Source: Escherichia coli
Lineage (GTDB): Bacteria > Pseudomonadota > Gammaproteobacteria > Enterobacterales > Enterobacteriaceae
DNA length: 64,000 nucleotides
Strand: one strand, 5' to 3'
NCBI RefSeq assembly: GCF_003018235.1
Contig: NZ_CP027437.1
Below the pieces are notes generated by a model. That model searched no databases and had not been told where the DNA came from. It was given only the letters and a program-made list of their open reading frames with translations. How positions within the stretch are numbered: the stretch's first letter is position 1; each line of letters starts with the position of its first letter. Below, in pieces: positions 1 through 14,792 of this stretch. The position numbers were made by a program, and so were the translations under genes.

Positions 1-164
1 GTGCCGAAAAATATCTATTAACCGCCCCGTTTTGTTTTATACATGTCCGGACTACGGACAGATTTTAGTATTGTTGTGAAATTATTCTGCTTTATATTTA
101 CCCTCAGAGATGGCAACTGAAGCTCTTCCACATGGGGCTTCTTAATCTGTGATAAGGGTAAAAA

Positions 165-1718
165 ATGCAAATGATTACCTCGCGACAAAACAGATTATTA
201 CGATTCCTTTTACCACGAAGGGAATATACGACTATTGTTACGATTGCCGGCTATTTAAATGTTTCGGAAAAAACCATTCAACGTGATTTACGTTTACTTG
301 AGCAATGGCTGGAACAATGGCGAATAACCGTTGAGAAGCGTGCTGGCGCAGGTGTGATGTTAGACTCGAAGAATATTACTGATTTGCTGCATCTTGATCA
401 TTTGTTGGGAGCAGAATGTGAAGAGATTGATGGTGTAATGAATAATGCCAGGCGCGTTAAAATAGCGTCGCAGTTATTAAGTGAAACACCGAATGAAACG
501 TCGATCAGTAAATTGTCAGAGCGCTATTTTATCAGTGGAGCCTCTATTGTTAATGACCTGAGAGTGATTGAGTCCTGGCTTGCGCCGTTGGGGTTATCAT
601 TGATCCGCAGCCCAAGTGGTACGCATATTGAAGGTAGTGAAGGGCAAGTCCGACAGGCAATGGCATTACTGATTAACGGCATTATTAACCATAATGAGCC
701 GCAAGGTGTCGTGTATTCACGTCTGGATCCCGGAAGTTATAAAGCATTAGTCCATTATTTTGGAGAAGAAGAGGTGTTATTTGTCCAGTCATTGTTACTG
801 GATATGGAAAATGAATTAAGTTGGTCTTTGGGAGAGCCTTATTACGTTAACATTTTTACTCACATCCTTATTATGATGTATCGCAACACGCACGGGAATG
901 CGTTATCCAGAGAAGAAGATCAAACCAGGCAATATGATGAAAATATCTTTAATGTTGCCAGTCAGATGATTCATAAGATAGAACAACGAATTGCACATAC
1001 ATTGCCCGATGATGAAGTCTGGTTTATTTATCAATATATCATTTCATCAGGTGTGGCGATTGATGGACAAAAAGATGTTAGCATTATTTCACATATGCAG
1101 GCCAGCAATGAAGCGCGTCTGATTACCTGGCGTTTAATTACGGTATTCAGTGACATCGTGGACTGCGATTTTAGTGAAGACAGCGCATTATATGATGGCT
1201 TATTGGTGCATATTAAGCCGCTGATTAACCGACTAAATTATCGCATTCATATCCGTAATCCATTGCTGGAAGATATTAAAGCAGAATTAGCGGATGTCTG
1301 GCGGTTGACGCAATATGTGGTGAATCAGGTATTTAAAACCTGGGGTGAGAATGCAGTGAGCGAGGATGAAGTGGGTTACCTGACCGTTCATTTTCAGGCT
1401 GCGATGGAGCGGCAAATTGCCCGTAAACGCGTATTACTGGTCTGTTCAACCGGAATCGGAACTTCGCATCTACTGAAAAGCCGTATTCTGCGAGCGTTTC
1501 CTGAATGGACGATTGTTGATGTTATTTCAGCAGCGAATTTATCACAGGTTTTGCCTGACAATATCGAACTGATTATTTCGACCATTAATTTGCCTACAGT
1601 CACTATGCCGGTCGCTTATGTTACCGCTTTTTTTAATGATGCCGATATTAAGCGGGTCACTGAAATGGTGATTACGGAAAAATTACATCATGCGACATCT
1701 CGGGTCGTTGAAATTTAA
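165..1718 (+). CDS. PTS-operon transcriptional activator (Mga-type HTH, PRD domains, EIIB-like CSTGIGTS motif); regulator of frz-like operon
   Basis: 517-aa ORF; N-terminal HTH-like region (EKTIQRDLRLLEQWL), C-terminal LLVCSTGIGTSHLL typical of PTS-regulatory-domain activators; first gene of PTS operon. Confidence 0.8.
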   Translation: MQMITSRQNRLLRFLLPRREYTTIVTIAGYLNVSEKTIQRDLRLLEQWLEQWRITVEKRAGAGVMLDSKNITDLLHLDHLLGAECEEIDGVMNNARRVKIASQLLSETPNETSISKLSERYFISGASIVNDLRVIESWLAPLGLSLIRSPSGTHIEGSEGQVRQAMALLINGIINHNEPQGVVYSRLDPGSYKALVHYFGEEEVLFVQSLLLDMENELSWSLGEPYYVNIFTHILIMMYRNTHGNALSREEDQTRQYDENIFNVASQMIHKIEQRIAHTLPDDEVWFIYQYIISSGVAIDGQKDVSIISHMQASNEARLITWRLITVFSDIVDCDFSEDSALYDGLLVHIKPLINRLNYRIHIRNPLLEDIKAELADVWRLTQYVVNQVFKTWGENAVSEDEVGYLTVHFQAAMERQIARKRVLLVCSTGIGTSHLLKSRILRAFPEWTIVDVISAANLSQVLPDNIELIISTINLPTVTMPVAYVTAFFNDADIKRVTEMVITEKLHHATSRVVEI

Positions 1719-1744
1719 TGTCAGAATTTTATGAGGTATGACGA

Positions 1745-2215
1745 ATGGACATAACAAAAATCCTGAATACGAATCGCGTTATTTTAGATATGCAAGCGAC
1801 GAATAAAGCGGAGGCGATTGAAGAATTAACTAATCTTCTCAAAAAAGATGGTGCGATCGATTGTCGGGAAACCTTTATTAAAGATGTCTGGCAGCGCGAA
1901 GCGGAAGGCTCGACTGGTTTTGAAAATCATATTGCGATCCCGCATGGTAAATCTTCTGCGGTAATTAATACCACGCTGGCGATCGGGCGAACCCGGCAGG
2001 ATATTCCCTGGGAAACGCTGGATGGCAGTAGCGTGCGCTGTATTATTTTATTTGCGGTACGTCTTGAAGATCAAAATACCACCCATATCCGTTTACTTTC
2101 CCAGGTCGCGGGTGCGCTGGCGGATGATGACATCATAGAACAATTGCTGGTTGAGACGAGTCCGCAAAAAATCATTGATCTCTTTAGTCAGTATGCACAA
2201 TCCGATGTCTGCTAA
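1745..2215 (+). CDS. PTS EIIA component, fructose/mannitol (type-2) family
   Basis: 156 aa; conserved HIAIPHGK phosphorylation-site His motif; operon context. Confidence 0.8.
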   Translation: MDITKILNTNRVILDMQATNKAEAIEELTNLLKKDGAIDCRETFIKDVWQREAEGSTGFENHIAIPHGKSSAVINTTLAIGRTRQDIPWETLDGSSVRCIILFAVRLEDQNTTHIRLLSQVAGALADDDIIEQLLVETSPQKIIDLFSQYAQSDVC

Positions 2216-2232
2216 ATAACAGGGAGTATGTC

Positions 2233-2547
2233 ATGAATATTGTCTGTGTTGCCGCCTGCACGGCGGGTATTGCTCACACCTATATTGCTCGTGAAAAGTT
2301 AATTAAAGGGGCAAAAGCACTGGGCCACACCATTAAAGTTGAAACCCAGGGAACCATTGGTACAGAAAACGAATTACAGGCGGCAGAGATCTCTGCTGCT
2401 GACGTCGTGATTCTTGCTGTGGATGTGAAAATAAAAGGAGAAGAACGTTTTACCAATAAACGCATTGTGCGAGTAAAGACAGAGATCGTCATTAAATCGC
2501 CCGTTCAATTTCTTGAAAAGGTCGAAAAATCACTGGGAAATAAATGA
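2233..2547 (+). CDS. PTS EIIB component, fructose-type
   Basis: 104 aa; N-terminal CVAACTAGIAHTYIA Cys motif typical of fructose-family EIIB. Confidence 0.8.
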   Translation: MNIVCVAACTAGIAHTYIAREKLIKGAKALGHTIKVETQGTIGTENELQAAEISAADVVILAVDVKIKGEERFTNKRIVRVKTEIVIKSPVQFLEKVEKSLGNK

Positions 2548-2571
2548 TCCTTATACTGGAGGGATCTTAAT

Positions 2572-3663
2572 ATGAAAGAAAATAAAATTCCGGTTTCACA
2601 GGAAATTAAAAAACATTTATTAACCGGCATCTCGTGGATGATACCCCTTATTGTGGCCGCCGGGATATGTATTGCGTTGGGGCAAGTTCTTGGCGGTACA
2701 GATGTTGGTGAAAAAACAGGAACAATCCCGTGGATGCTTAATCAGATTGGCGGCTGGGGAATGGGGCTGATTGTGCCGCTGATTAGCGCGGCAATTGCCT
2801 ATTCTATTGCTGATCGTCCCGGTTTTGCCCCGGGCCTGATTGTCGGCTTTCTCTGTGGGCAAATCCATACCGGATTTATTGGCGGTATGTTGGGTGGTTT
2901 CCTGGTGGGCTACACCATTTTGCTACTTAAACGCTATATCCGCCTGCCGCAGTCGATGCAAGGACTCATGCCAATCATGGTGTTACCGGTATTGAGCACC
3001 ATTATCGGTGGGCTGTTAATGATGACGCTGATTGGTAAACCCATCGCCTGGTTACAAGAAGCACTGACTCATTTGCTCGAGTCGATGCAGGGCGGATCGC
3101 GCTTCCTGATGGGGGCCATACTTGGCGCGATGGCAACCTTCGATTTCGGTGGTCCGGTCAACAAAACCATGTCGCTGTTTTCCGATGGCTTGCTGGTCAG
3201 TGGCGTCTACGGACCAGAAGCCGTGAAATTTGTCGGCTCAATCATCCCTCCGTTTGGCATCACACTTTCGTTCTTACTGACACGCCATAAATACACCCGT
3301 GCGGAGCGCGAGGCGCTGAAAGCCGCGTTTCCGATGGGGATCTGCATGATCACTGAAGGAGTCATTCCGATCGCCGCGCGTGACCTGCTGCGAGTAGTGG
3401 GATCTTGTGTGGTGGCATCGGCGGTCGCGGGCGGCTTAATCATGGTGTGGGGCGTGGAGAGTCCGGTTCCGCATGGCGGCATGTTTGTTGTGCCTCTGTT
3501 CACCCATCCTCTGCTGTTTTGCCTGGCGCTGGGTATAGGCACGGTGATTTGTGGCGTGATGCTTTCACTCTGGAAGAAACCGGTAACGGAACGCGACGAA
3601 GAGTTTGACGAACTGAGCGATCAAAAGCTGAAAGATGAAGAGATCACTTTCACCCTCGAATAA
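2572..3663 (+). CDS. PTS EIIC permease, fructose-like family
   Basis: 363 aa, highly hydrophobic multi-TM protein; GGAGG SD upstream; follows EIIA/EIIB. Confidence 0.8.
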   Translation: MKENKIPVSQEIKKHLLTGISWMIPLIVAAGICIALGQVLGGTDVGEKTGTIPWMLNQIGGWGMGLIVPLISAAIAYSIADRPGFAPGLIVGFLCGQIHTGFIGGMLGGFLVGYTILLLKRYIRLPQSMQGLMPIMVLPVLSTIIGGLLMMTLIGKPIAWLQEALTHLLESMQGGSRFLMGAILGAMATFDFGGPVNKTMSLFSDGLLVSGVYGPEAVKFVGSIIPPFGITLSFLLTRHKYTRAEREALKAAFPMGICMITEGVIPIAARDLLRVVGSCVVASAVAGGLIMVWGVESPVPHGGMFVVPLFTHPLLFCLALGIGTVICGVMLSLWKKPVTERDEEFDELSDQKLKDEEITFTLE

Positions 3664-3674
3664 CCGGAGGCCCT

Positions 3675-4526
3675 ATGTTTGCCGATATGAAAAGTATGGT
3701 GATGAAAGCCTGGCATGAACATTACGCCTTGCTGGCGATCAACTGTATGAATCTGGAAAGTGCTCACGCAGCTATCCGCGTGGCGGAGAAGAATCGCGCT
3801 CCGATCATTCTCAATCTCTATCAGGGGCATCTGGCGCATTTTCCTGCACCCGTCGCGGCGGCAGTGGTTAAAACGCTCGCGGAATCTGCCTCAGTACCGG
3901 TCGCTCTGGCGCTTGATCATGGCAAAAATCCGGACTGTATTCGTCAGGCGTTTCGTGCTGGTTTCAGCGGATTAATGATTGATGCTTCTGCTTTTCCCCT
4001 GGAGGAAAACGTGCGCCAGACCAGGGCGGTGGTGGAACTCGCCGCCAGCGCGCAGCTCTGCGTGGAAGGCGAACTGGGCCATCTGGCAGATGCGCCGCGT
4101 TACGACCAGGCCGCCAATGCAGACCTGATGACGCAACCCACTGATGTGGAACCGTTTATCGCGCAGACAGGCATTGATCTACTGGCCGTCTCGGTAGGCA
4201 CGGCGCACGGCATGTACGCGCCTGGTGTTGTACCTGCTATTGATTTTCAGCGTCTGGCGGAGATTTTCCACTGCTCGAGCGTGCCTCTGGCATTACATGG
4301 CGGTAGCGGTACGCCGTTCGATCAGCTCCAGCTCTGTACGACGCTGGGGGTAGCAAAAATCAACGTGGGGGCGGCCATTTTTGAACGGGGGAAATCCGCG
4401 CTCCTGCATACCCTCTGTCACGATATATCCATTGAACTGGTGGACGCGCTGAAAGCTATGGAACTGGCCTTCGAAGAAGCGATTACACCGTATTTACAGG
4501 CGAGCGGCTCTATAGGCAAAGCCTGA
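3675..4526 (+). CDS. Class II ketose-1,6-bisphosphate aldolase (GatY/KbaY/FbaA family), copy 1
   Basis: 283 aa; LDHG, GTAHG and LHGGSG metal-binding motifs. Confidence 0.8.
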   Translation: MFADMKSMVMKAWHEHYALLAINCMNLESAHAAIRVAEKNRAPIILNLYQGHLAHFPAPVAAAVVKTLAESASVPVALALDHGKNPDCIRQAFRAGFSGLMIDASAFPLEENVRQTRAVVELAASAQLCVEGELGHLADAPRYDQAANADLMTQPTDVEPFIAQTGIDLLAVSVGTAHGMYAPGVVPAIDFQRLAEIFHCSSVPLALHGGSGTPFDQLQLCTTLGVAKINVGAAIFERGKSALLHTLCHDISIELVDALKAMELAFEEAITPYLQASGSIGKA

Positions 4527-4606
4527 TTCATTTTCTGTCATGGCCTTTATGCCAGTGCAATAACGCACCGGCAGGGCGGACTACACGCTGAAACTGGAGA
4601 TTTAAC

Positions 4607-5467
4607 ATGTTAGTTTCGATGAAAGAATTACTGCAACCTACCCGCCAGCACGGCTTTGCCATTGGCGCATTTAATGTGGCGGATAACTGTTTCCTTCGCG
4701 CAGTCGTGGATGAAGCAGAAGCGACAAATACTCCGGCGATTATTGCCATCCATCCCAGCGAACATGATTTTGTGGGCGATGCCTTTTTCGCTCACGTTCG
4801 CGAAATTACCCAGCGTAGTCCGGTCCCGTTTGTACTGCACCTCGATCATGGTGCCTCTGTAGAGCATGTTTTGCGTGCGATTCGCTGCGGATTTACCTCA
4901 GTAATGATCGACGGTTCGCTGCTGCCGTATGAAGAAAACGTGGCGCTGACCGCAGAAGTGGTTCGCCTCGCTCACGCGGTTGGAGTGTCGGTTGAGGGTG
5001 AACTGGGAACCATCGGACAAACAGGAACGTCGGTAGAAGGTGGTGTTTCACAAGTGACCTACACAGATCCGGCGCAGGCCGCCGATTTTATTGCTCGTAC
5101 AGGTGCCGACACTCTGGCTGTGGCGATTGGTACAGCGCATGGCATCTATCCAAAAGGGATGCAGCCGAAGCTGCAAATGGACATTTTGCGCGACATTGCC
5201 GGACGTATTGATATTCCGCTGGTGCTACACGGTGGTTCGGCAAACCCGGACGCGGAGATTGCTGAATCAGTTACGCTCGGCGTCGGCAAAATCAATATCT
5301 CCAGCGATATGAAATACGCCTATTTCCAGAAAGTGCGTGAAATTCTCGCTAAAGAGAGCTGGTGGGACCCGAACGTCATCTATCCGGATGCGATTAACGC
5401 GGCGCGGGAAGTCATTCGCCACAAAATGAAACTGTTCGGTTCGCTCGGTAAAGCATCACTGTACTAA
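4607..5467 (+). CDS. Class II ketose-1,6-bisphosphate aldolase, copy 2
   Basis: 286 aa; HLDHG, IGTAHG, LVLHGGS motifs; paralog of preceding gene. Confidence 0.8.
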   Translation: MLVSMKELLQPTRQHGFAIGAFNVADNCFLRAVVDEAEATNTPAIIAIHPSEHDFVGDAFFAHVREITQRSPVPFVLHLDHGASVEHVLRAIRCGFTSVMIDGSLLPYEENVALTAEVVRLAHAVGVSVEGELGTIGQTGTSVEGGVSQVTYTDPAQAADFIARTGADTLAVAIGTAHGIYPKGMQPKLQMDILRDIAGRIDIPLVLHGGSANPDAEIAESVTLGVGKINISSDMKYAYFQKVREILAKESWWDPNVIYPDAINAAREVIRHKMKLFGSLGKASLY

Positions 5468-5474
5468 GCCAGAA

Positions 5475-5495
5475 GGGCGGGGTGACCCGCCTTTT
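5475..5495 (+). terminator. GC-rich hairpin (GGCGGG-GTGA-CCCGCC) followed by TTTT between aldolase-2 and ROK kinase; possible intra-operon attenuator/partial terminator
   Basis: Inverted repeat read directly from sequence, T-run downstream. Confidence 0.35.
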
Positions 5496-5514
5496 ACGCA
5501 ACAAGGAACGAGAT

Positions 5515-6447
5515 ATGCACTATCTGGGGTTGGATATTGGTGGGACCAAAATCGCCGCCGTCGTCATGGATGCGCATGGCTGGGAGATTCGCCGTTACCG
5601 CTGCCCGACGCAAAAGTCGACATATCAACAATTTGTCTCATGCGTTGTGGCGTTTATCGAGCAGATTAGGCGGGACGTTCAACGACCGATGCTGACAGGG
5701 ATCGCCTTACCCGGCAGTATCTCGCCACTCACTGGCCTGATTAAAAACGCGAATATTCAGGTGATTAACGGTCATGCGTTACAGGCTGATTTGCAGCAAT
5801 TGCTTGGGCAACCGGTGGTGATAGCCAATGATGGTAACTGTTTCGCGCTATCAGAAGCTTGCGACGGTGCCGGGCAAGATTATGACGTGGTATTTGGTAT
5901 TACGCTTGGTACGGGCTGCGGCGGTGGCATTGCCATCAAGCAACGACCGTTTATAGGGGCCTGGGGAAATGCTGCCGAATGCGGTCATATCACGTTGCCA
6001 AGCTATACGGAGCAGGAAGATGGTCCATCAGTCAGTTGCTATTGCGGCAAACACAACTGCGTGGAGTCGTTTGTTTCCGGCAGCGGTTTTAGTGAACGCT
6101 ATCAACAGATGACTGCTAACTTGCTCACTCCTGCGGCGATTGTCACCCTGGCACAACGTGGTGATGCTTGTGCCATGCAGCAGGTGGCACGTTTTCGCCA
6201 ACAGCTTGCCCGCACGCTGGCAACCATCGTTAACGTTGTTGACCCTGGCGTGATTGTGATTGGCGGCGGGCTTTCGAATGTGGAACTGCTTATCACCGAT
6301 CTGAACGCAGAAGTCGCTCCACTGGTTTTCACCGACCAATTCACCACCCCCATTGTAAAAGCGCAGCACGGCGACAGTAGCGGAATGCGTGGCGCTGCCT
6401 GGCTTGCTATGCGCAACGGAGAAGCCAATGAAACGTTCACAAATTAA
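5515..6447 (+). CDS. ROK-family sugar kinase
   Basis: Start trimmed to MHYLGLDIGGTKIA (AAGGAA SD upstream); ROK glycine-rich ATP motif and Cys-rich zinc motif (CYCGKHNC). Confidence 0.8.
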   Translation: MHYLGLDIGGTKIAAVVMDAHGWEIRRYRCPTQKSTYQQFVSCVVAFIEQIRRDVQRPMLTGIALPGSISPLTGLIKNANIQVINGHALQADLQQLLGQPVVIANDGNCFALSEACDGAGQDYDVVFGITLGTGCGGGIAIKQRPFIGAWGNAAECGHITLPSYTEQEDGPSVSCYCGKHNCVESFVSGSGFSERYQQMTANLLTPAAIVTLAQRGDACAMQQVARFRQQLARTLATIVNVVDPGVIVIGGGLSNVELLITDLNAEVAPLVFTDQFTTPIVKAQHGDSSGMRGAAWLAMRNGEANETFTN

Positions 6448-7108
6448 TTATGTTATTGATAAAGCACATGCCATTGCGCAGACCTTCCGCGTTTGTTTGC
6501 CAGAGTTCGCCTATTTTACGGTGGATGACTGGCTGCAGCGGGAACGGGATAACTGGCAAGAAGTGGTCGACTTACAGCTCGGTTGGGATATCACCGATTT
6601 TGGTCGTGGTGATTTCAACCAAACGGGACTAACACTGCTAACGATGCGCAACGGCGCGCTGGGGGCGGCGGCATATCCAAAACCGTATGCTGAGAAAATG
6701 TTGCAGATCCAACAAGATCAGCAGACTCCCTGGCATTTTCACACCCACAAAATGGAAGATATCCTCAATCGGGGCGGTGGAGACTTATGCATGCAGTTGG
6801 CCTGGGCCAACGAAGCCAATCTCTGTGATGATCAACGAGTCATTACCGTGAGTGTTGATGGTCAGCGGCGTACCATGAAACCTGGTGAAACGCTGGTGCT
6901 AAAGCCGGGGCAGGGCATTTGCCTGCCGCCGCGTCTGTATCATCGCTTCTGGGCGGAAAAAGCGTTTGTTCTCGGCTGGGAAATTTCGATGGTAAATGAT
7001 GACCAACACGATAACTATTTTCTTGAGCCGGGAGGACGTTTTCCGGCGATAGAAGAAGATGAACCGGTGAAATGGTTATTGTGCAGTGAGTATGGAATTT
7101 TGCGCTAA
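6428..7108 (+). CDS. Cupin-superfamily protein (D-lyxose/sugar isomerase-like)
   Basis: Start chosen at MKRSQINYV (overlaps ROK stop by 20 nt); HFHTHK cupin metal motif; last gene of frz-like operon. Confidence 0.7.
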   Translation: MKRSQINYVIDKAHAIAQTFRVCLPEFAYFTVDDWLQRERDNWQEVVDLQLGWDITDFGRGDFNQTGLTLLTMRNGALGAAAYPKPYAEKMLQIQQDQQTPWHFHTHKMEDILNRGGGDLCMQLAWANEANLCDDQRVITVSVDGQRRTMKPGETLVLKPGQGICLPPRLYHRFWAEKAFVLGWEISMVNDDQHDNYFLEPGGRFPAIEEDEPVKWLLCSEYGILR

Positions 7109-7117
7109 TAACGGGGA

Positions 7118-7143
7118 ACGCTAGCGCTGATATCCGCTAGCGT
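7118..7143. terminator. Bidirectional hairpin terminator between convergent frz-like operon and yicH
   Basis: Perfect 9-bp inverted repeat ACGCTAGCG / CGCTAGCGT with 8-nt loop, followed by T-rich tract. Confidence 0.45.
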
Positions 7144-7151
7144 CCTTATTT

Positions 7152-8861
7152 TTACTGCACCGGCTCCGTCGACGTAACTTCACCACTGGAAACTACGCCC
7201 GCATTCATGGTTTGAGTCACTTGCTGCTTTGCGGCATTCACGGCATGCAATTGCCCGCTAACCGTAGGTTTCAGCGGGACATTGGCCTGAATATCGCCAC
7301 TGGCAGTAAGCTGAATATTGCCGTCGCCAGTCAACGGTAATTCAGGCCATCCCCACTGTTGCAAAATATTCACCGGCACACCGCGTCCATTCAGGCTGAT
7401 ATGGGTCTGACGTTGTGGCGTTTGTGAAACACTGGCGGTGGCTTCCAGAATGCCTTTTTCAGTAAATGCACTCAGTTCGCTGATATTCACCGTGCTGCTG
7501 TTGGCGGTCAGCGCCAGCGATGGGCGACGAACATCAACACGATTGAATGTCGCGGCGGCGGCATTCAGATTCGCCGAACCACTCCAGACGCCCCATTTAT
7601 GATCGGTAACCAGCGTCAGGTTGGTACCGTAACCATCGAGCGCGGTGAGCTGCCACGGGAAGTCAGGGTCGATATCAATGATCAGATTGCGGCTGGCGCT
7701 AAATCTCTTCAGTTGCAGGCTGTTTAACCAACCGGGTGTCGTTTCCATCCACAACTGTTGCCAGTTTTTTGGCAAGGTATATTCCAGTCCGGCAATTGCC
7801 GCATCATCAAGGAGCAACGTTTTCCCGTTGCGCAGCCAGTTCCCGGACGTTCTGACCATGCCCCCTTCCCAGCGGCTGGTGAACTGGCGCAGCGCTACGC
7901 CCTGCGGGGAAAATTCCGCGTTTATAATCGGGTCAAATAAATGCAGCGAACCATAAATGAACTCGCTGGCGTTCATCGACAGTTTGCCTTCCTGTGTCTG
8001 CCAGTCATCTTTACTGAAGGTCATGTTGCGCAAGCTGAGATCGAGGTCGGTCACCGCCCAGTCCGGACCTTGCAGGCGAGCGTCGATGACTTCCAGGCGA
8101 CCGATCTGCAACGACGGGACAGAGCGTAATGGCGCAAAGAAGTCAGTTAGCGATTTTTCGCTTTGTAGACGGATATCCGCCAGCCGCAGATTTTCCACTT
8201 GCCAGCTGCCGTCGGCGTTACGCTGCGCGTTTCCGGTTAATGTCCCGCGGGCGATGTCGGCACCCAGGTTAGTCAGCGTAACGCGATCGTTATCAATACT
8301 GCCTTCAATCAGTACATTGGTGGCAGGAACATCATTGAGAGAAAGCGATCCGGCACTAAACTGAATCTGCGCCTTCGTACCCAGCACTTTACCGGCTTCT
8401 GGTGACCACGGAACCACGCCACCATTTACCCGCTGCGCGCTCAGTTTCCATTCGCTATTCGGGCTATTAAACGCCATATCACGCAGTTGCAGACGATCGG
8501 CTTTGAACGGTAGCGGCGCGGTCTGGTCGGTGAGATTCAGCGTCCCGTTTTCCAGCAGGATGGTATCGACATGGCGTGGTTCGGTCAGTTGCCGACTGCT
8601 TAGCGCAATGTCGACACTTTTTGCCACCAGGGTCGCGGGCTGGCCATCACGGCCGAACGTGACGTTCTCCAGCACGATATGAGATGGCGCGGAAAAACGG
8701 TGATCCATCGCCCCGAAGGCCAGATGATAGTCGCTATTCTCGGAAACCCATGCGCTGATATGTTCTGCTCCCCAGCGGGTTTGCAGAAGAAAATAGAGGC
8801 CAGCGATCACCACTAACAGAGCGATGAAAATGTAGAGAAGCAGCTTCCCAATAAATTTCAT
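7152..8861 (-). CDS. yicH: AsmA-family outer-membrane biogenesis protein YicH
   Basis: 569 aa after trimming to MKFIGKLLLYI; N-terminal TM segment; synteny next to xanP. Confidence 0.85.
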   Translation of the reverse strand: MKFIGKLLLYIFIALLVVIAGLYFLLQTRWGAEHISAWVSENSDYHLAFGAMDHRFSAPSHIVLENVTFGRDGQPATLVAKSVDIALSSRQLTEPRHVDTILLENGTLNLTDQTAPLPFKADRLQLRDMAFNSPNSEWKLSAQRVNGGVVPWSPEAGKVLGTKAQIQFSAGSLSLNDVPATNVLIEGSIDNDRVTLTNLGADIARGTLTGNAQRNADGSWQVENLRLADIRLQSEKSLTDFFAPLRSVPSLQIGRLEVIDARLQGPDWAVTDLDLSLRNMTFSKDDWQTQEGKLSMNASEFIYGSLHLFDPIINAEFSPQGVALRQFTSRWEGGMVRTSGNWLRNGKTLLLDDAAIAGLEYTLPKNWQQLWMETTPGWLNSLQLKRFSASRNLIIDIDPDFPWQLTALDGYGTNLTLVTDHKWGVWSGSANLNAAAATFNRVDVRRPSLALTANSSTVNISELSAFTEKGILEATASVSQTPQRQTHISLNGRGVPVNILQQWGWPELPLTGDGNIQLTASGDIQANVPLKPTVSGQLHAVNAAKQQVTQTMNAGVVSSGEVTSTEPVQ

Positions 8862-8949
8862 GGTCTTCCATCCCGTGAAATGCACATAAGGGAGTTATGC
8901 ACGATTTACGCGCAATCCTCAAGGCGGGAATGGTGAAAGAGGTGAGACT

Positions 8950-8974
8950 GCGGCGGTAATTATCTTACCGCCGC
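8950..8974. repeat. Perfect 10-bp inverted repeat (GCGGCGGTAA / TTACCGCCGC) downstream of xanP; REP-like or terminator stem
   Basis: Read from sequence; no clean U-tract on xanP strand. Confidence 0.35.
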
Positions 8975-8981
8975 CAGTGAA

Positions 8982-10373
8982 TTACTGTTTTTCTGGTGGG
9001 AAAATCAGATTCAGCACGATGGCAGTAATACCGCCTGCGGCGATCCCGGAGGAGAGCAGGTTTTTCAGCCACTCAGGGGCAAACTGCAAAATCAGCGGCT
9101 GCTGAGACACGCCCAAACCGACCGCCAGCGACAGCGCGATAATCAGAATCGCCCGACGGTTCAGCGGCTCACGAGAAACAATGCGCACACCGGAGGCGGC
9201 GATGGTGCCAAACATTACAAGCGTTGCGCCGCCCAGAACCGGTTCAGGAATGTGTTGTACAAAACCGCTCACTGCCGGGAACAGACCCAGCACGATCAAC
9301 ATCAGCGCGACGACAAAACCGACATAGCGGCTGGCAACACCGGTTAACTGGATCACTCCGTTGTTCTGCCCGAAGCAGGAGTTCGGGAAGGTGTTAAATA
9401 CCGCCGAAACAAACGAGTTCAGGCCGTTTGCCAGCACGCCGCCTTTCAGGCGTTTCATGTACAGCGGACCGGACACTGGCTGTTCGGAAACGTCAGAGGT
9501 CGCCGTGATATCGCCAATGGTTTCCAGCGAAGTGATCATAAAGACCAGCATCAGCGGCAGCAGCAGACTCCATTCAATGCCAAGGCCGTAATAGAGCGGC
9601 GTTGGTACCATAATCAGTTCTTGCGTCATCGGTTCGTTGCTTTCTGGCAACATGCCCATAAACCACGCCAGCGCATATCCGGCCGCCATCGCAATCACCA
9701 GTGAGGCCACGCGTAAGTAAGGGTTACGTTGACGGTTAAGCAGGATAATTAAGGCTAAAACCACGCCTGCCAGCAGCAGATTTTTCGGTGCGCCGAAGGT
9801 GTTATCGCTCATGGCTGCGTAACCGCCGCCAATGGAGGTCAGCCCCACCTGAATTAGCGACAGGCCGATAATCATCACCACAACGCCAGAAACCAGCGGC
9901 GTAATAATGCGGCGCGCCAGATGCAGAACGCGGGAGATCACCATCTCGGTGCAACTTGCCAGCATCAACGTGCCAAACAAAGCCGCCATCATGGTAGGAA
10001 CATCAGCACCACCGGTTTTCAGCGCGGTACCGCCCATAATCAGCGGGGCAACAAAGTTGAAGCTGGTGCCCTGAATAGACAACAGCCCGGAGCCAACCGG
10101 ACCCCAGGCCTTAATTTGAATAATCGATGCCACACCGGAGGCAAACAGCGACATACTAATAATGTGTTGCGTGTCTTGTGCCGGTAAACCCAGCGCCTGG
10201 CAGATTAATAGCGCTGGCGTGATCACCGCAACGAACATCGCCAGCAAATGCTGACAGGCGGCAAACAGAGTTTGAGGAAGCGGCGGACGATCTTCAAGAC
10301 GGTAAATCAGTTCGCTGTTTTGAGTCTGCGCAACCGGTTGCGCATTTTCTGACTCGAGGGTGGAAACAGACAT
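8982..10373 (-). CDS. xanP: Xanthine permease (NCS2 family)
   Basis: 463 aa from [16 protein letters not shown]; matches remembered XanP/YicE sequence. Confidence 0.9.
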
Positions 10374-10651
10374 CGAAAACAATCCCGTGGTAGCAAAGCG
10401 GGCATTTTAGCTGACCGAAAGAGAAAAGCAAACGTTTGCCACATCCTCATCTAAATATTTAAATGAGATAAATGCACTTTTTTATATAACTTTTGGTATT
10501 TTTCTGCTTAAAATCCATGCCATTTGTTCATTAACAGCTGAGAATTTGACCCAGGAAAGCATAACTCGATACCCGTCATAGTTCATAAGTTGCCACTGCG
10601 CGATGAAGTATGACGAGTATGAAAGAGTGATGCGGATACAAAGGAGTAACT

Positions 10652-11857
10652 ATGTTTCATCTCGATACTTTAGCAACGCTTGTTGCCGCAACGCTGACGT
10701 TGCTGCTCGGGCGTAAGTTGGTCCATTCCGTCTCCTTTTTGAAGAAATACACCATACCGGAACCTGTTGCGGGTGGTTTGTTGGTGGCGTTAGCGCTACT
10801 GGTACTGAAAAAAAGCATGGGCTGGGAAGTCAACTTTGATATGTCCCTGCGCGATCCGTTAATGCTGGCATTCTTCGCCACCATTGGCCTGAACGCCAAC
10901 ATTGCCAGTTTGCGTGCCGGTGGGCGTGTGGTTGGCATCTTCTTGATTGTGGTTGTTGGTCTGTTGGTGATGCAAAATGCCATTGGCATTGGTATGGCTA
11001 GCCTGTTAGGGCTTGATCCGCTGATGGGGCTGTTGGCCGGTTCTATTACGCTTTCCGGCGGTCACGGTACGGGCGCTGCGTGGAGTAAATTGTTCATTGA
11101 ACGCTATGGCTTCACCAATGCGACGGAAGTGGCGATGGCCTGTGCGACGTTTGGTCTGGTGCTGGGCGGCTTGATTGGCGGTCCGGTAGCGCGCTATCTG
11201 GTGAAACACTCCACCACGCCGAACGGTATTCCGGATGACCAGGAAGTCCCGACGGCGTTCGAAAAGCCGGATGTGGGCCGCATGATCACCTCGCTGGTGC
11301 TGATTGAAACTATCGCGCTGATTGCTATCTGCCTGACGGTGGGGAAAATTGTTGCGCAACTTTTGGCTGGCACTGCTTTTGAACTGCCGACCTTCGTCTG
11401 TGTACTGTTTGTTGGCGTGATTCTGAGCAACGGTCTGTCAATGATGGGCTTTTACCGCGTCTTTGAGCGTGCGGTATCCGTGCTGGGTAACGTAAGCCTG
11501 TCGTTGTTCTTGGCGATGGCGCTGATGGGGCTGAAATTATGGGAGCTGGCTTCGCTGGCGCTGCCGATGCTGGCGATTCTGGTGGTACAGACCATCTTCA
11601 TGGCGCTGTATGCCATCTTCGTTACCTGGCGCATGATGGGCAAAAACTACGATGCGGCAGTGCTGGCTGCGGGTCACTGTGGTTTTGGCCTCGGTGCAAC
11701 GCCAACGGCAATCGCCAACATGCAGGCGATCACTGAACGTTTTGGCCCGTCGCACATGGCCTTCCTGGTCGTGCCGATGGTCGGTGCGTTCTTTATTGAT
11801 ATCGTTAACGCGCTGGTGATTAAGCTGTATTTGATGTTGCCGATTTTTGCCGGTTAA
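10652..11857 (+). CDS. gltS: Sodium/glutamate symporter
   Basis: 401 aa, polytopic membrane protein; matches GltS. Confidence 0.9.
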   Translation: MFHLDTLATLVAATLTLLLGRKLVHSVSFLKKYTIPEPVAGGLLVALALLVLKKSMGWEVNFDMSLRDPLMLAFFATIGLNANIASLRAGGRVVGIFLIVVVGLLVMQNAIGIGMASLLGLDPLMGLLAGSITLSGGHGTGAAWSKLFIERYGFTNATEVAMACATFGLVLGGLIGGPVARYLVKHSTTPNGIPDDQEVPTAFEKPDVGRMITSLVLIETIALIAICLTVGKIVAQLLAGTAFELPTFVCVLFVGVILSNGLSMMGFYRVFERAVSVLGNVSLSLFLAMALMGLKLWELASLALPMLAILVVQTIFMALYAIFVTWRMMGKNYDAAVLAAGHCGFGLGATPTAIANMQAITERFGPSHMAFLVVPMVGAFFIDIVNALVIKLYLMLPIFAG

Positions 11858-11859
11858 AA

Positions 11860-12726
11860 ATGAAAAAGCGTCGGAAGGAACCGGAAACGCTACGTGAACA
11901 CTGTCGCCATATTTTTGGTGACGAGCCGCCAGTGCTCTGTGTATGGGAAACGGAATTTGATTACGCAGATGCCGAACTCAAGGCGCTGGCGGCTAAAGAG
12001 TGGCAACAGATAGGCGAATGGGATTTGAGTGCTTACTATGTACTCAATCTCGTTTATAACGAACCGATGCAAATAGAGCTGTTTCGCTATCTGTTTCCGC
12101 TATGCCTGGCGCAATGGCATGAAACCGTTTTAGCTGGCGGTTATGGTGATCACTTCGAAGAATCCTTAATGAAGGCATTGCGTCGGCCCTATCTCTGGCA
12201 GGAGATGATGAATGCTTCCCAACGCCAGCAGGTACGGCAATTTTTACTGGAAACCGCGTTGCAGCGTATGGATAACGAGCGTGGTTTCAATAATGTTCTT
12301 TGCTGGCTGGCGGTGTTCAATACTCTGGGCGGGGCCGCGCCGTTAATTCATTCTCTCTGGTCACGCTGGTGGGCACTGGATACGCCGGGAAAAGCGGTGT
12401 GTGCTATTCAGTATGCCGCGCATCTAATTTATCCCATAGAAGCCAATCCGTTATGGTCGCAAGAATGGTTAGGCTGGGGGCATCCATTAGGTCATAAAGA
12501 TGGCTGGTCCTCTGAGAATCGCGCTTTTCTTCGCCAAATGTTAACACCTGAAATGATTGTGGCTGGCGTACAGGCAGCGGCTGAAATTCTGCGTGGTGAA
12601 CCGGAAGGCGCAATGGCGGCGCGAATTGCGCAGGATGCGTATGAGGCAATGGATATCATCACTATCCAGATTGAAGATTTACTGCGTGACTTGTCTTGCG
12701 ATGAGTCAGGTCATGCGTTGGAGTAA
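11860..12726 (+). CDS. Hypothetical protein, unknown function (Trp-rich, soluble)
   Basis: 288-aa ORF starting 3 nt after gltS stop; 3' end overlaps recG 3' end on opposite strand; no family recognised by eye; absent from K-12 at this position as far as I recall. Confidence 0.55.
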   Translation: MKKRRKEPETLREHCRHIFGDEPPVLCVWETEFDYADAELKALAAKEWQQIGEWDLSAYYVLNLVYNEPMQIELFRYLFPLCLAQWHETVLAGGYGDHFEESLMKALRRPYLWQEMMNASQRQQVRQFLLETALQRMDNERGFNNVLCWLAVFNTLGGAAPLIHSLWSRWWALDTPGKAVCAIQYAAHLIYPIEANPLWSQEWLGWGHPLGHKDGWSSENRAFLRQMLTPEMIVAGVQAAAEILRGEPEGAMAARIAQDAYEAMDIITIQIEDLLRDLSCDESGHALE

Positions 12727-14792
12727 CGTTCCGTTTCCGGCATCCAGCGTTCTATCAGGGCTTTTGCCTGTTGTGGGTAACGTTCGTGAATATGTCGCGC
12801 CAGGCGCTGAACTTCCGGGATCATCGCCTGATCGCGCAGTAAATCCGCCACTTTAAACTCAGCATTACCCGTCTGACGCGTACCTAACAGTTCACCCGGT
12901 CCGCGAATCTCTAAGTCTTTCTGTGCAATCACAAAACCGTCGTTGCTGTCGCGCAGTACCTGCAGGCGAATTTGCGCCGTTTTAGAGAGCGGTGTTTTGT
13001 AGAGCAACACGCAGTGAGAAGCCACCGCACCACGACCTACACGCCCGCGAAGCTGGTGCAACTGCGCCAGACCCAGACGCTCCGGGTTTTCGATAATCAT
13101 CAGGCTGGCGTTAGGCACATCAACGCCGACTTCAATAACGGTAGTGGCAACCAGCAGGTGTAACTCGCCTTGTTTAAATGATGCCATGACGGCCTGCTTC
13201 TCGGCTGGTTTCATCCGTCCGTGTACCAGACCAACATTCAACTCTGGTAGCGCCAGTTTCAACTCTTCCCAGGTAGCTTCCGCCGCCTGCGCTTCCAGTA
13301 ACTCTGACTCTTCAATGAGTGTGCACACCCAGTACGCCTGACGCCCTTCAGTCATACAGGCGTGGCGCACGCGGTCAATGATGTCGGTACGGCGAGTATC
13401 AGGAATAGCGACCGTAGTCACTGGCGTGCGGCCTGGCGGCAGTTCATCAATGACCGAGGTGTCGAGATCAGCATACGCAGTCATCGCCAGCGTGCGGGGG
13501 ATCGGCGTGGCGGTCATGATCAACTGATGAGGATGGAAGCCTTGCTGCTGGCCTTTCTCCCATAACGCCAGACGCTGATGCACGCCAAAACGATGCTGTT
13601 CGTCGATAATCACCAGCGCCAGGCCGTTAAACTGCACCTGTTCCTGGAAGATGGCGTGTGTTCCGACAATCATCTGCACCTGACCGCTGGCGATGGCTTC
13701 CTGCTGTGCCAGCCGCGCTTTACCTTTCTGCTTACCGGCGAGCCAGCCCACTTCGATACCGAGCGGTGCAAACCAGTTACGGAAGTTATTGGCGTGCTGT
13801 TCGGCGAGTAATTCGGTTGGTGCCATCAATGCCACCTGTTTGCCGTGGGCAATCGCACGCAGCGCGGCGAGGGCAGCGACCAGCGTTTTACCGGAACCTA
13901 CATCGCCCTGTACCAGGCGCATCATCGGCGCATCCAGCGCCATATCGCGCTCGATCTCCGCCACCACGCGTGCCTGTGCGCCCGTTGGCTTGAACGGTAA
14001 GGCTGCGAGGAGTTTATTTTTCAGCGCGTCATTGGCGCTAAGCGGCTGGGCATGGAAACGTTGTGCACCAGCGCGTAACGCCAACATGCTGAGGTTGTGC
14101 GCAAGCAGTTCTTCCAGAATCAGACGGCGTTGTGCTGGATGCTGCCCGGTTTCGAGATCGCTAAGCTGTAGCGTCGGCGGCGGGCGGTGCAAAGTGCGCA
14201 ACGCTTCCGGTAGCGTCATCATTCCTTGTGACAGTTCCGGCGGCAGGAGTTCTTCAATGGCGCAGGTGTCGAGCAGATCCAGCGCCTGGTCGGTTAATTT
14301 ACGCAGCGTGGCCTGCTTTACGCCTTCGGTTGTTGGATAAACCGGCGTAAGCGTTTCCTGCAACTCTGGCGTACTGAGATCGCCCTGCACGCGGTATTCC
14401 GGGTGGATCATCTCCGCGCCATATTTACCGCGCTTTACTTCTCCATAGGCCAGCACGCGGCGGCCCGTCGCCAGGCTATTTTTCATTGCCGCGTTGAAGT
14501 TGAAAAAGCGCATGGTGAGAATGCCGGAACCGTCGCTGATCTGGCAGGTCATCATCCGCCGACCGCCGAAGGAGATATTGCAGTTCAGCACTTCGCCTTC
14601 CACCGTGGCATAAACGCCCGGTAGTAGTTCTCCGATGGGGTAGAGATGGGTGCGATCTTCGTAGCGCAGGGGAAGGTGTAAGAGTAGATCCTGCACGGTA
14701 TGCAGGTTGATTTTCGCCAGCTTGTTACTGAGCGCTGCGCCAACGCCCGTTAGGGAACTGAGCGGGACAGCATCTAACAGGCGACCTTTCAT
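12711..14792 (-). CDS. recG: ATP-dependent DNA helicase RecG
   Basis: 693 aa from MKGRLLDAVPLSSLTGVG; helicase motifs GDVGSGKT, DEQHRFG. Confidence 0.95.
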   Translation of the reverse strand: MKGRLLDAVPLSSLTGVGAALSNKLAKINLHTVQDLLLHLPLRYEDRTHLYPIGELLPGVYATVEGEVLNCNISFGGRRMMTCQISDGSGILTMRFFNFNAAMKNSLATGRRVLAYGEVKRGKYGAEMIHPEYRVQGDLSTPELQETLTPVYPTTEGVKQATLRKLTDQALDLLDTCAIEELLPPELSQGMMTLPEALRTLHRPPPTLQLSDLETGQHPAQRRLILEELLAHNLSMLALRAGAQRFHAQPLSANDALKNKLLAALPFKPTGAQARVVAEIERDMALDAPMMRLVQGDVGSGKTLVAALAALRAIAHGKQVALMAPTELLAEQHANNFRNWFAPLGIEVGWLAGKQKGKARLAQQEAIASGQVQMIVGTHAIFQEQVQFNGLALVIIDEQHRFGVHQRLALWEKGQQQGFHPHQLIMTATPIPRTLAMTAYADLDTSVIDELPPGRTPVTTVAIPDTRRTDIIDRVRHACMTEGRQAYWVCTLIEESELLEAQAAEATWEELKLALPELNVGLVHGRMKPAEKQAVMASFKQGELHLLVATTVIEVGVDVPNASLMIIENPERLGLAQLHQLRGRVGRGAVASHCVLLYKTPLSKTAQIRLQVLRDSNDGFVIAQKDLEIRGPGELLGTRQTGNAEFKVADLLRDQAMIPEVQRLARHIHERYPQQAKALIERWMPETERYSNA

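Follow-up and report, generated by a model that had tools for sequence, protein, structure and literature searches.

Which sugar does the frz operon of Escherichia coli handle, and by what route? This operon is a published fitness factor and typing marker in avian and human extraintestinal E. coli, its presence in a genome is routine, and the literature that we searched reports a substrate neither for its phosphotransferase system (PTS), in keeping with what a first-pass annotation of the present DNA had stated, nor for the Listeria monocytogenes cluster lmo2133–lmo2137 with which it is compared below. In this report, we focused on the frz copy in a 64,000-nucleotide stretch of E. coli DNA—the window, to which all coordinates refer—where it occupies positions 165–7108 on the plus strand, and compared it with loci from other bacteria. 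Our overall explanation, to which we give a probability of roughly 0.8, is that this segment is the frz operon with a core/accessory make-up and that it works by the mechanism proposed below. The comparisons narrow the question of the substrate and of the fimbrial switch with which frz has been linked: what is conserved is the PTS together with a pair of unusual aldolases, and the kinase and isomerase are not part of this unit. They also provide aldolases that look monophosphate-like, a precise candidate operator, and what looks like a long-standing enterobacterial locus that K-12-like strains no longer have.

There is hardly any doubt about the identity of the segment. Eight intact co-directional open reading frames (ORFs) fill it, in the order regulator, EIIA, EIIB, EIIC, aldolase, aldolase, ROK kinase, and cupin, and are separated by gaps of 11–80 nt except for the kinase and cupin genes, which overlap by 20 nt. 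Their lengths and family scores are far beyond chance, and near-identical RefSeq genomes are annotated with the same eight genes at equal lengths. The gene content listed in the first-pass annotation (an Mga-type activator, three PTS components, two class II aldolases, a ROK kinase, and a cupin protein) is borne out by ORFs, profiles, and RefSeq, and its coordinates were exact. The frz PCR primers published in PMC6238794 match with zero mismatches at 570–589 (plus strand) and 1393–1412 (minus strand), both within the regulator gene, and span 843 bp, which is the product size given in that paper. Among the 5426 complete E. coli genomes that we surveyed, frz DNA (at least 80% of window 1–7150) is present in 1603 (29.5%), including strains of extraintestinal pathogenic E. 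coli (ExPEC), with an identity of at least 95% overall and of 98.5–99.6% among the matches listed; the best of the matches listed is a bovine isolate (99.6%), and B2 ExPEC strains are at 98.7–98.8%. The same search of window 1–7150 returned 1611 matching places, one of them on a record classed as plasmid. In the BEN2908 genome paper, frz is genomic region GR27, a 7227-bp segment between yicH and yicI that is reported in APEC O1, IMT5155, RS218, IHE3034, 78-Pyelo, CFT073, and LF82 and given as absent from MG1655. The operon as found in BEN2908, an avian ExPEC strain, and described by Rouquet et al. 2009 (J Bacteriol 191:4427) as summarized in PMC12928451, PMC8777976, and PMC6238794, has the same eight genes as the window copy, the same position between yicH and yicI, and the same size of ~7.2 kb, with no difference of substance. 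Because primers and amplicon are exact, the DNA identity is this high, and content and position agree with GR27, we regard it as almost certain that 165–7108 is the published frz operon, as had been proposed from the letters alone; the feature is thus already known, and our comparative results leave its classification unchanged.

The first-pass annotation had also called frz enriched in ExPEC and linked to stress fitness and type 1 fimbriae. These links stand as reported: later papers associate frz with virulent isolates, credit it with late stationary-phase survival when oxygen is low, with growth in serum and in the gut, and with adhesion and invasion, and report that it shifts the fimS switch towards ON (type 1 fimbriae). 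A confinement to ExPEC does not stand, in view of the 29.5% of complete genomes that carry the operon and of their sources, which include cow, sheep, rat, dog, and wastewater in addition to human and poultry. Finally, frz is a single eight-gene transcription unit, because the genes are closely spaced or overlapping, one terminator stands at the end, and literature summaries report that it is transcribed as one operon. Its parts and immediate borders are as follows.

44–60: inverted repeat TGTCCGGACTACGGACA, with TGTCC and GGACA as its arms; candidate operator for the frz regulator
64–98 (plus strand): promoter-like conserved region, with TTTAGTATTGT at 64–74 and a −10-like TATATT at 93–98
165–1718 (plus strand): frz regulator, 517 amino acids, with HTH_11/Mga, PRD1, PRD2, and EIIB(Gat)-like domains (Pfam)
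1745–2215 (plus strand): PTS EIIA of the fructose/mannitol family, 156 amino acids; TIGR00848, with His67 in IAIPHG
2233–2547 (plus strand): PTS EIIB of fructose type, 104 amino acids; TIGR00829, with Cys9 in AACTAGIAHT
2572–3663 (plus strand): PTS EIIC of the fructose subfamily, 363 amino acids; TIGR01427
3675–4526 (plus strand): aldolase 1, class II (PF01116 family), 283 amino acids, the more divergent paralogue
4607–5467 (plus strand): aldolase 2, class II, PRK08185 subfamily (NF006042), 286 amino acids
5515–6447 (plus strand): ROK-family sugar kinase, 310 amino acids, with the start as in RefSeq; the frame is open from a GTG at 5482 as well
6428–7108 (plus strand): cupin of the D-lyxose/D-mannose isomerase family, 226 amino acids; the ORF is open from 6389
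7118–7153 (plus strand): terminator-like hairpin and T run at the operon end, from a terminator scan (9-bp stem with six G-C pairs, followed by CCTTATTTTT)
7152–8861 (minus strand): yicH (AsmA family), a core gene outside frz that forms its right border, from the RefSeq annotation of near-identical genomes

The kinase start at 5515 is consistent with RefSeq and with the orthologues. The right edge of frz lies at ~7148–7151, where frz-negative genomes start to match (at 7148 or 7151), and yicH was found in 5424 of the 5426 complete genomes.

Conserved core and enzyme families

Regulator, EIIABC, and two aldolases form a conserved six-gene core that extends from Enterobacterales to Firmicutes, to which kinase and cupin are optional additions. 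Our set comprised 76 loci, 71 from a one-genome-per-species scan with an aldolase 1 alignment and five from other look-ups, and the six genes occur in order in 70 of them, including loci from Pantoea, Erwinia, Pectobacterium, Brenneria, Enterococcus, Pediococcus, Lactobacillus, Marinilactibacillus, and Sebaldella. When incomplete copies are scored as absent, 32 of these 70 core loci have neither kinase nor cupin, 13 have the cupin only, 10 the kinase only, and 15 both. One Citrobacter locus (L019) has no ROK gene, its cupin ORF beginning 8 nt past aldolase 2, and in the other Citrobacter loci that hold this region (L020, L022–L027, and L038) no ROK match covers 60% of the query.

The three EII proteins make up a fructose-family PTS permease. 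Each of them passes a family model—TIGR00848 for EIIA (127 bits vs. a cut-off of 103.5), TIGR00829 for EIIB (99.4 vs. 76.85), and the fructose-specific TIGR01427 for EIIC (314.9 vs. 157.55)—and His67 of EIIA and Cys9 of EIIB lie in the expected motifs. No curated substrate-specific PTS model attains its cut-off for these proteins in a profile search; the curated full-length models nearest to EIIC are FruA, FrwC-like, and MngA, every one of which scores below its cut-off.

The two aldolases are paralogues that are 33% identical and belong to the class II (zinc) fructose-/tagatose-bisphosphate (FBP/TBP) aldolase family. Aldolase 2 reaches 525.9 bits with NF006042/PRK08185, for which the cut-off is 405, and aldolase 1 is below every curated cut-off. 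The latter keeps the catalytic and zinc motifs D-H, GELG, TAHG, HGGS, and K-x-N, and in an alignment with GatY, KbaY, YdjI, and FbaA no variation is seen at residues D80, H81, E130, E132, H178, H208, K228, and N230. Neither of them has the arginine of the D-P-R motif of ketose-1,6-bisphosphate aldolases, which is present in five solved FBP aldolases and in GatY, KbaY, and FbaA. Aldolase 1 has no arginine at this position, and aldolase 2 has an asparagine in 74 of 74 orthologues, in 72 of them as DPN. In FbaA, this residue is Arg331, which we take to bind the distal (C6) phosphate of the bisphosphate substrate. Since both frz aldolases lack this arginine of characterized bisphosphate aldolases, cleavage of a ketose 1-monophosphate is favored; that they are monophosphate enzymes is nevertheless a prediction that we hold at slightly under even odds, with bisphosphate specificity doubtful and the label "ketose-bisphosphate" being the name of the family. 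Neither aldolase has a close solved structure, the top structure matches scoring 145–200 bits. A metagenomic contig (L017, 1–4470) carries a second module directly upstream of a frz-like operon, which consists of a PRD regulator with an EIIA domain, a fused EIIABC, and one class II aldolase that is 53% identical to aldolase 2 and is also without the DPR arginine.

The accessory enzymes are assigned with less precision. The kinase has the DxGxT motif (LGLDIGGTK) and the zinc motif (GH...CYCGKHNCVE) of the ROK family and is closest to the Mak-type fructokinase model NF007108, with 316 bits vs. a cut-off of 443. The cupin scores 271.8 bits with NF051472, and its homologues carry PF07385. It is ~50% identical over its full length to the D-lyxose isomerase Z5688 of E. 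coli O157:H7 (structures 3KMH and 3MPB), with which the H-x-H, E, and H metal ligands and a neighboring Lys align; the difference is that the frz cupin falls below the curated equivalog cut-off of 350. We consider it a member of the D-lyxose/D-mannose-type aldose-ketose isomerase family, with a predicted activity of this kind. A 49%-identical homologue, at a distance similar to that of Z5688, adjoins an ATP-binding cassette (ABC) sugar transporter rather than a PTS, and more distant ones adjoin ABC or major facilitator superfamily (MFS) transporters or unrelated genes, which gives no direct clue to the frz substrate. A Salmonella enterica island beside a phage-type integrase (L011, 5455–14541) holds an MFS transporter, a mutarotase, a 62%-identical cupin, a class II aldolase without the DPR arginine, a single PfkB kinase, a zinc alcohol dehydrogenase, and a DeoR regulator, and may represent an aldose route of the isomerase-kinase-aldolase type that does without a PTS.

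In Firmicute-type loci, other enzymes follow aldolase 2: ScrK-like ROK fructokinases, which are 24% identical to the frz kinase, and a short Lyx_isomer cupin, whose 27% identity to the frz cupin is that of a weak local match over 55 residues. In one metagenomic locus, it is a class I mannose-6-phosphate isomerase that follows aldolase 2. Because non-orthologous enzymes of free fructose or mannose have been recruited independently, this suggests that a free fructose- or mannose-type sugar appears in the frz pathway.

Regulator and proposed mechanism

In RefSeq, the protein encoded by 165–1718 is named "BglG family transcription antiterminator" or "transcription antiterminator". A BglG/SacY-type antiterminator was ruled out: Pfam finds HTH_11, Mga, two PTS regulation domains (PRD), and a PTS_IIB-like domain, and neither a CAT RNA-binding domain nor an EIIA-like domain, and an Rfam search of window 1–13000 finds no RNA element, in the leader or elsewhere. 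Two histidines, His349 and His409, lie in PRD2, and Cys427 of the EIIB(Gat)-like domain lies in VLLVCSTGIGTS. The order HTH-Mga-PRD1-PRD2-EIIB(Gat), both PRD2 histidines, and the EIIB-like cysteine are shared with the Mga-like PRD activators MtlR, ManR, and LicR, unlike which the 517-residue frz regulator ends after the EIIB-like domain, with no C-terminal EIIA(Mtl)-like domain detected. Judged by its predicted domains, it resembles a shortened MtlR/ManR-type DNA-binding PRD activator rather than a BglG antiterminator.

The region upstream of the regulator gene contains a palindrome at 44–60 that is the sole exact match in the window. In 64 of the 76 loci, from Enterobacteriaceae to Enterococcus, its consensus, TGTCC-N7/8-GGACA, lies upstream of the regulator gene at a distance of no more than 400 nt, and it matches 65 times in total across the 1.45 Mb of all 76 loci; the arms are invariant and the spacer is variable. 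Because it is found upstream of this gene and almost nowhere else, we consider it a candidate operator to which the frz regulator is predicted to bind. An intrinsic terminator at 44–60 was ruled out, the stem being 5–6 bp with loops of up to 8 nt, no T run following, and the arms never varying. In an alignment of upstream regions from nine genera, the invariant elements are the palindrome, TTTAGTATTGT at 64–74, TATATT at 93–98, and the ribosome-binding site, together with a CRP-like TGCGA-N6-TCACG and a block AATGTGATCTG, both of which are just beyond the left edge of the window. We placed a putative weak frz promoter at 64–98 by this conservation and not by a sigma-70 scan, which called fewer promoter-like sites than it did in shuffled sequence and made no call at the upstream blocks that are conserved. 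In five Citrobacter loci (L019, L021, L022, L024, and L025), the palindrome is 254–332 nt before the regulator start vs. ~130 nt in other Citrobacter, and the leader of these loci carries an insertion.

These assignments can be combined into the following mechanism. EIIABC(Frz) would take up and phosphorylate a fructose-like sugar, and the two aldolases would split the phosphorylated product into dihydroxyacetone phosphate (DHAP) and an aldehyde. That frz is in this sense a catabolic PTS route ending in aldol cleavage is probable, and we state it with good confidence. More tentatively, and with the balance of probability tilted a little to the other side, the ketose 1-monophosphate would be cleaved directly, without a second phosphorylation, which would also fit the many core operons that have no kinase. 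Cupin isomerase and ROK kinase would turn a free mannose/lyxose-type aldose into a phosphorylated ketose for central metabolism, this aldose being either the aldehyde product of the aldol cleavage or a free sugar related to it. The first of these options, in which the aldehyde product is itself the mannose/lyxose-type aldose handled by cupin and kinase, is speculative; the same pairing of cupin and aldolase is seen in the Salmonella island described above, with its 62%-identical cupin, Arg-less aldolase, and PfkB kinase. The regulator would bind TGTCC-N7/8-GGACA just upstream of the weak promoter and activate its own operon, its activity being set, by analogy with MtlR, ManR, and LicR, by PTS phosphorylation of PRD2 (His349 and His409) and of Cys427. 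The conserved CRP-like site, farther upstream and outside the window, would add catabolite control. Taken to its full extent, the proposal would make frz-type operons, including the six-gene core versions of plant-associated Enterobacterales and of lactic acid bacteria, an undescribed kind of PTS pathway in which a ketose 1-phosphate, maybe of more than six carbons, is split by an Arg-less aldolase pair into DHAP and a free mannose/lyxose-type aldose that is recovered by cupin and ROK kinase, under a PRD activator acting on TGTCC-N7/8-GGACA. In this complete form it is a long shot.

Several points weigh against this mechanism. Every catalytic step in it is inferred from family membership. The phosphate-binding role of the DPR arginine is taken from the literature, and the loss of one residue is no proof of monophosphate specificity. 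The ROK kinase could have the different role of phosphorylating the PTS product a second time, and since both kinase and isomerase are below equivalog cut-offs, their specificities may differ from those of Mak and D-lyxose isomerase. Finally, the palindrome is tied to the frz regulator by co-occurrence only, and a simple scan flagged it as terminator-like.

The alternative that survives best is a canonical bisphosphate route, in which the PTS would produce a ketohexose 1-phosphate (of D-tagatose, D-psicose, or sorbose, for example), the ROK kinase or a kinase of the host, for example FruK or PfkA/B, would add the 6-phosphate, and the aldolases would release DHAP and glyceraldehyde 3-phosphate, in the manner of the pathways for galactitol and D-tagatose. 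Both aldolases are in the class II FBP/TBP family with all catalytic motifs, a kinase gene is present within the E. coli operon, and FruA, whose product is fructose 1-phosphate, is the nearest to EIIC. However, 32 of the 70 core operons have no kinase, 13 more have the cupin only, and the kinase is of the ROK type, nearest to kinases of free hexoses, and not of the PfkB type that is used on ketose 1-phosphates. In addition, this route leaves the isomerase without a role, and both aldolases are without the DPR arginine of GatY, KbaY, and FbaA. On balance, we consider a bisphosphate route unlikely, if still worth keeping in view.

A second alternative is that frz is mainly a sensor, with little catabolic flux through it: the phosphorylation state of the Frz PTS and regulator would report a sugar to the fim switch and to stress fitness. 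This would be consistent with the phosphorylatable PRD and EIIB-like domains of the regulator and with the phenotypes themselves, which, as far as the literature summaries describe them, were reported in LB medium, serum, and gut without a defined sugar, the shift of fimS towards ON among them. In contrast, the catalytic residues of the enzymes are kept across phyla, lineages add further catabolic enzymes to the operon, and no frz-type palindrome is found in the nanC-fimB-fimE-fimA regulatory region of K-12. In that region, which served as a stand-in since K-12 is without frz, there is no exact palindrome, and two one-mismatch hits lie in coding sequence, at about the number expected by chance. 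We thus find a primarily sensory role very unlikely. The sensor and catabolic readings do not exclude each other, and the mechanism of the published fitness and fim-switch effects is not explained by the present findings.

Genomic position and origin

The gene order in frz-positive genomes is selC (tRNA-Sec)-yicJ-yicI-frz-yicH-xanP-gltS. The first-pass annotation had correctly placed frz next to yicH, which is directly 3' of it at 7152, and had described it as replacing the yicI-yicJ genes of K-12. The latter claim is refuted: yicJ-yicI is directly upstream, and a 1.4-kb probe over the yicI end and regulator start is contiguous in 1602 genomes, essentially all the frz-positive ones. No yicI had been seen because the window starts ~130 bp past its stop codon, which leaves the gene itself beyond the window; over the 164 nt that precede the regulator gene, the window does not differ from the frz-positive junction of strain 98224, in which the yicI stop is 131 nt upstream of the window start. 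In K-12- and BL21-type strains, yicI and yicH are separated by 52 bp. The left end of the frz segment lies past the terminator hairpin of yicI and its right end ~10 nt short of the stop codon of yicH, and there is no integrase, tRNA, or direct repeat at its junctions.

This position is not peculiar to E. coli. We found yicI-frz-yicH in 18 fetched loci from Escherichia sp., Citrobacter, Klebsiella (including K. grimontii and K. michiganensis), Superficieibacter, and Phytobacter ursingii, and the full yicJ-yicI-frz-yicH-xanP arrangement is common to Citrobacter and Klebsiella aerogenes. Protein identities between E. coli and Citrobacter are 76–96% for frz and 82–96% for the flanking genes, and frz and flanking proteins diverge in the same order, with Citrobacter first, Klebsiella next, and Mangrovibacter last. 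Strain HS-02 has a frameshifted 266-nt stump of the 5' end of the regulator gene directly against yicH, next to a frz-type yicI end (L010, 4165–4430), which is a secondary deletion of the operon and shows that deletion does occur. Because the yicI/yicH position is shared across genera, the divergence is like that of the flanking genes, and HS-02 has kept this stump, frz looks like an old enterobacterial locus that K-12-like strains have lost and not like a recent gain of ExPEC.

That frz is instead an ExPEC-specific, horizontally acquired island replacing yicI-yicJ beside yicH is barely credible, since its absence from K-12 and BL21, the low G+C of the regulator, EIIA, and EIIB genes (41–45% vs. 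50–56% for the remaining frz genes), and the association with virulent isolates in literature summaries are set against a retained yicJ-yicI, a position shared with other genera, a divergence like that of the flanking genes, junctions free of integrase, tRNA, and flanking repeats, and the deletion in HS-02.

Three further observations concern the neighborhood. First, frz-positive and frz-negative haplotypes share 93% identity over the final 300 bp of yicI (L001 8571–8870 vs. L002 8650–8949), compared with 96–99% over the rest of yicJ-yicI, which suggests that the junction holds an old boundary or a recombination tract. Second, in K. aerogenes the frz cupin gene is separated from yicH by three additional genes (L006, 10747–14910), which encode an RpiR/SIS regulator, a glycoside hydrolase of family 4, and an EIICB of the PTS and look like a phospho-alpha-glucoside unit. 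Third, farther along the window, an 857-bp segment between gltS and recG (11858–12714) contains a 288-residue ORF (11860–12726, plus strand) that overlaps the end of recG and has no Pfam or PADLOC match; the segment is present in BL21 and in 1910 of the 5426 complete genomes and is not in C4 and 98224, the closest genomes over frz.

Comparison with known systems

Among the described systems close to frz is lmo2133–lmo2137 of L. monocytogenes, a fructose-like PTS/aldolase cluster that PMC2996996 describes as a homologue of the ExPEC operon. Like frz, it has two class II aldolases and fructose-type EIIA, EIIB, and EIIC, but no ROK kinase or cupin is listed for it in PMC2996996; Listeria is outside our set of 76 loci.

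The GatYZ and KbaYZ systems for galactitol, N-acetylgalactosamine, and D-tagatose parallel frz in that a PTS sugar is led to cleavage by a class II aldolase and in that each operon has two aldolase-related genes. Unlike in the frz aldolase pair, however, the partners GatZ and KbaZ are from a different family and are annotated as chaperones, GatY and KbaY keep the DPR arginine, and their PTS genes belong to the galactitol or mannose families.

A parallel for the frz aldolases is provided by YdjI from the ydj cluster of E. coli K-12, a member of the same family that is 31–37% identical to them, has the same catalytic motifs, and is also without the DPR arginine. The ydj cluster differs in being fed by an MFS transporter and the PfkB kinase YdjH instead of a PTS, in having a single aldolase, and in its other neighbors. 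YdjI, which is annotated in RefSeq as an octuluronate-1-phosphate aldolase, is a precedent for a member of this family that releases DHAP and a free, larger aldose derivative.

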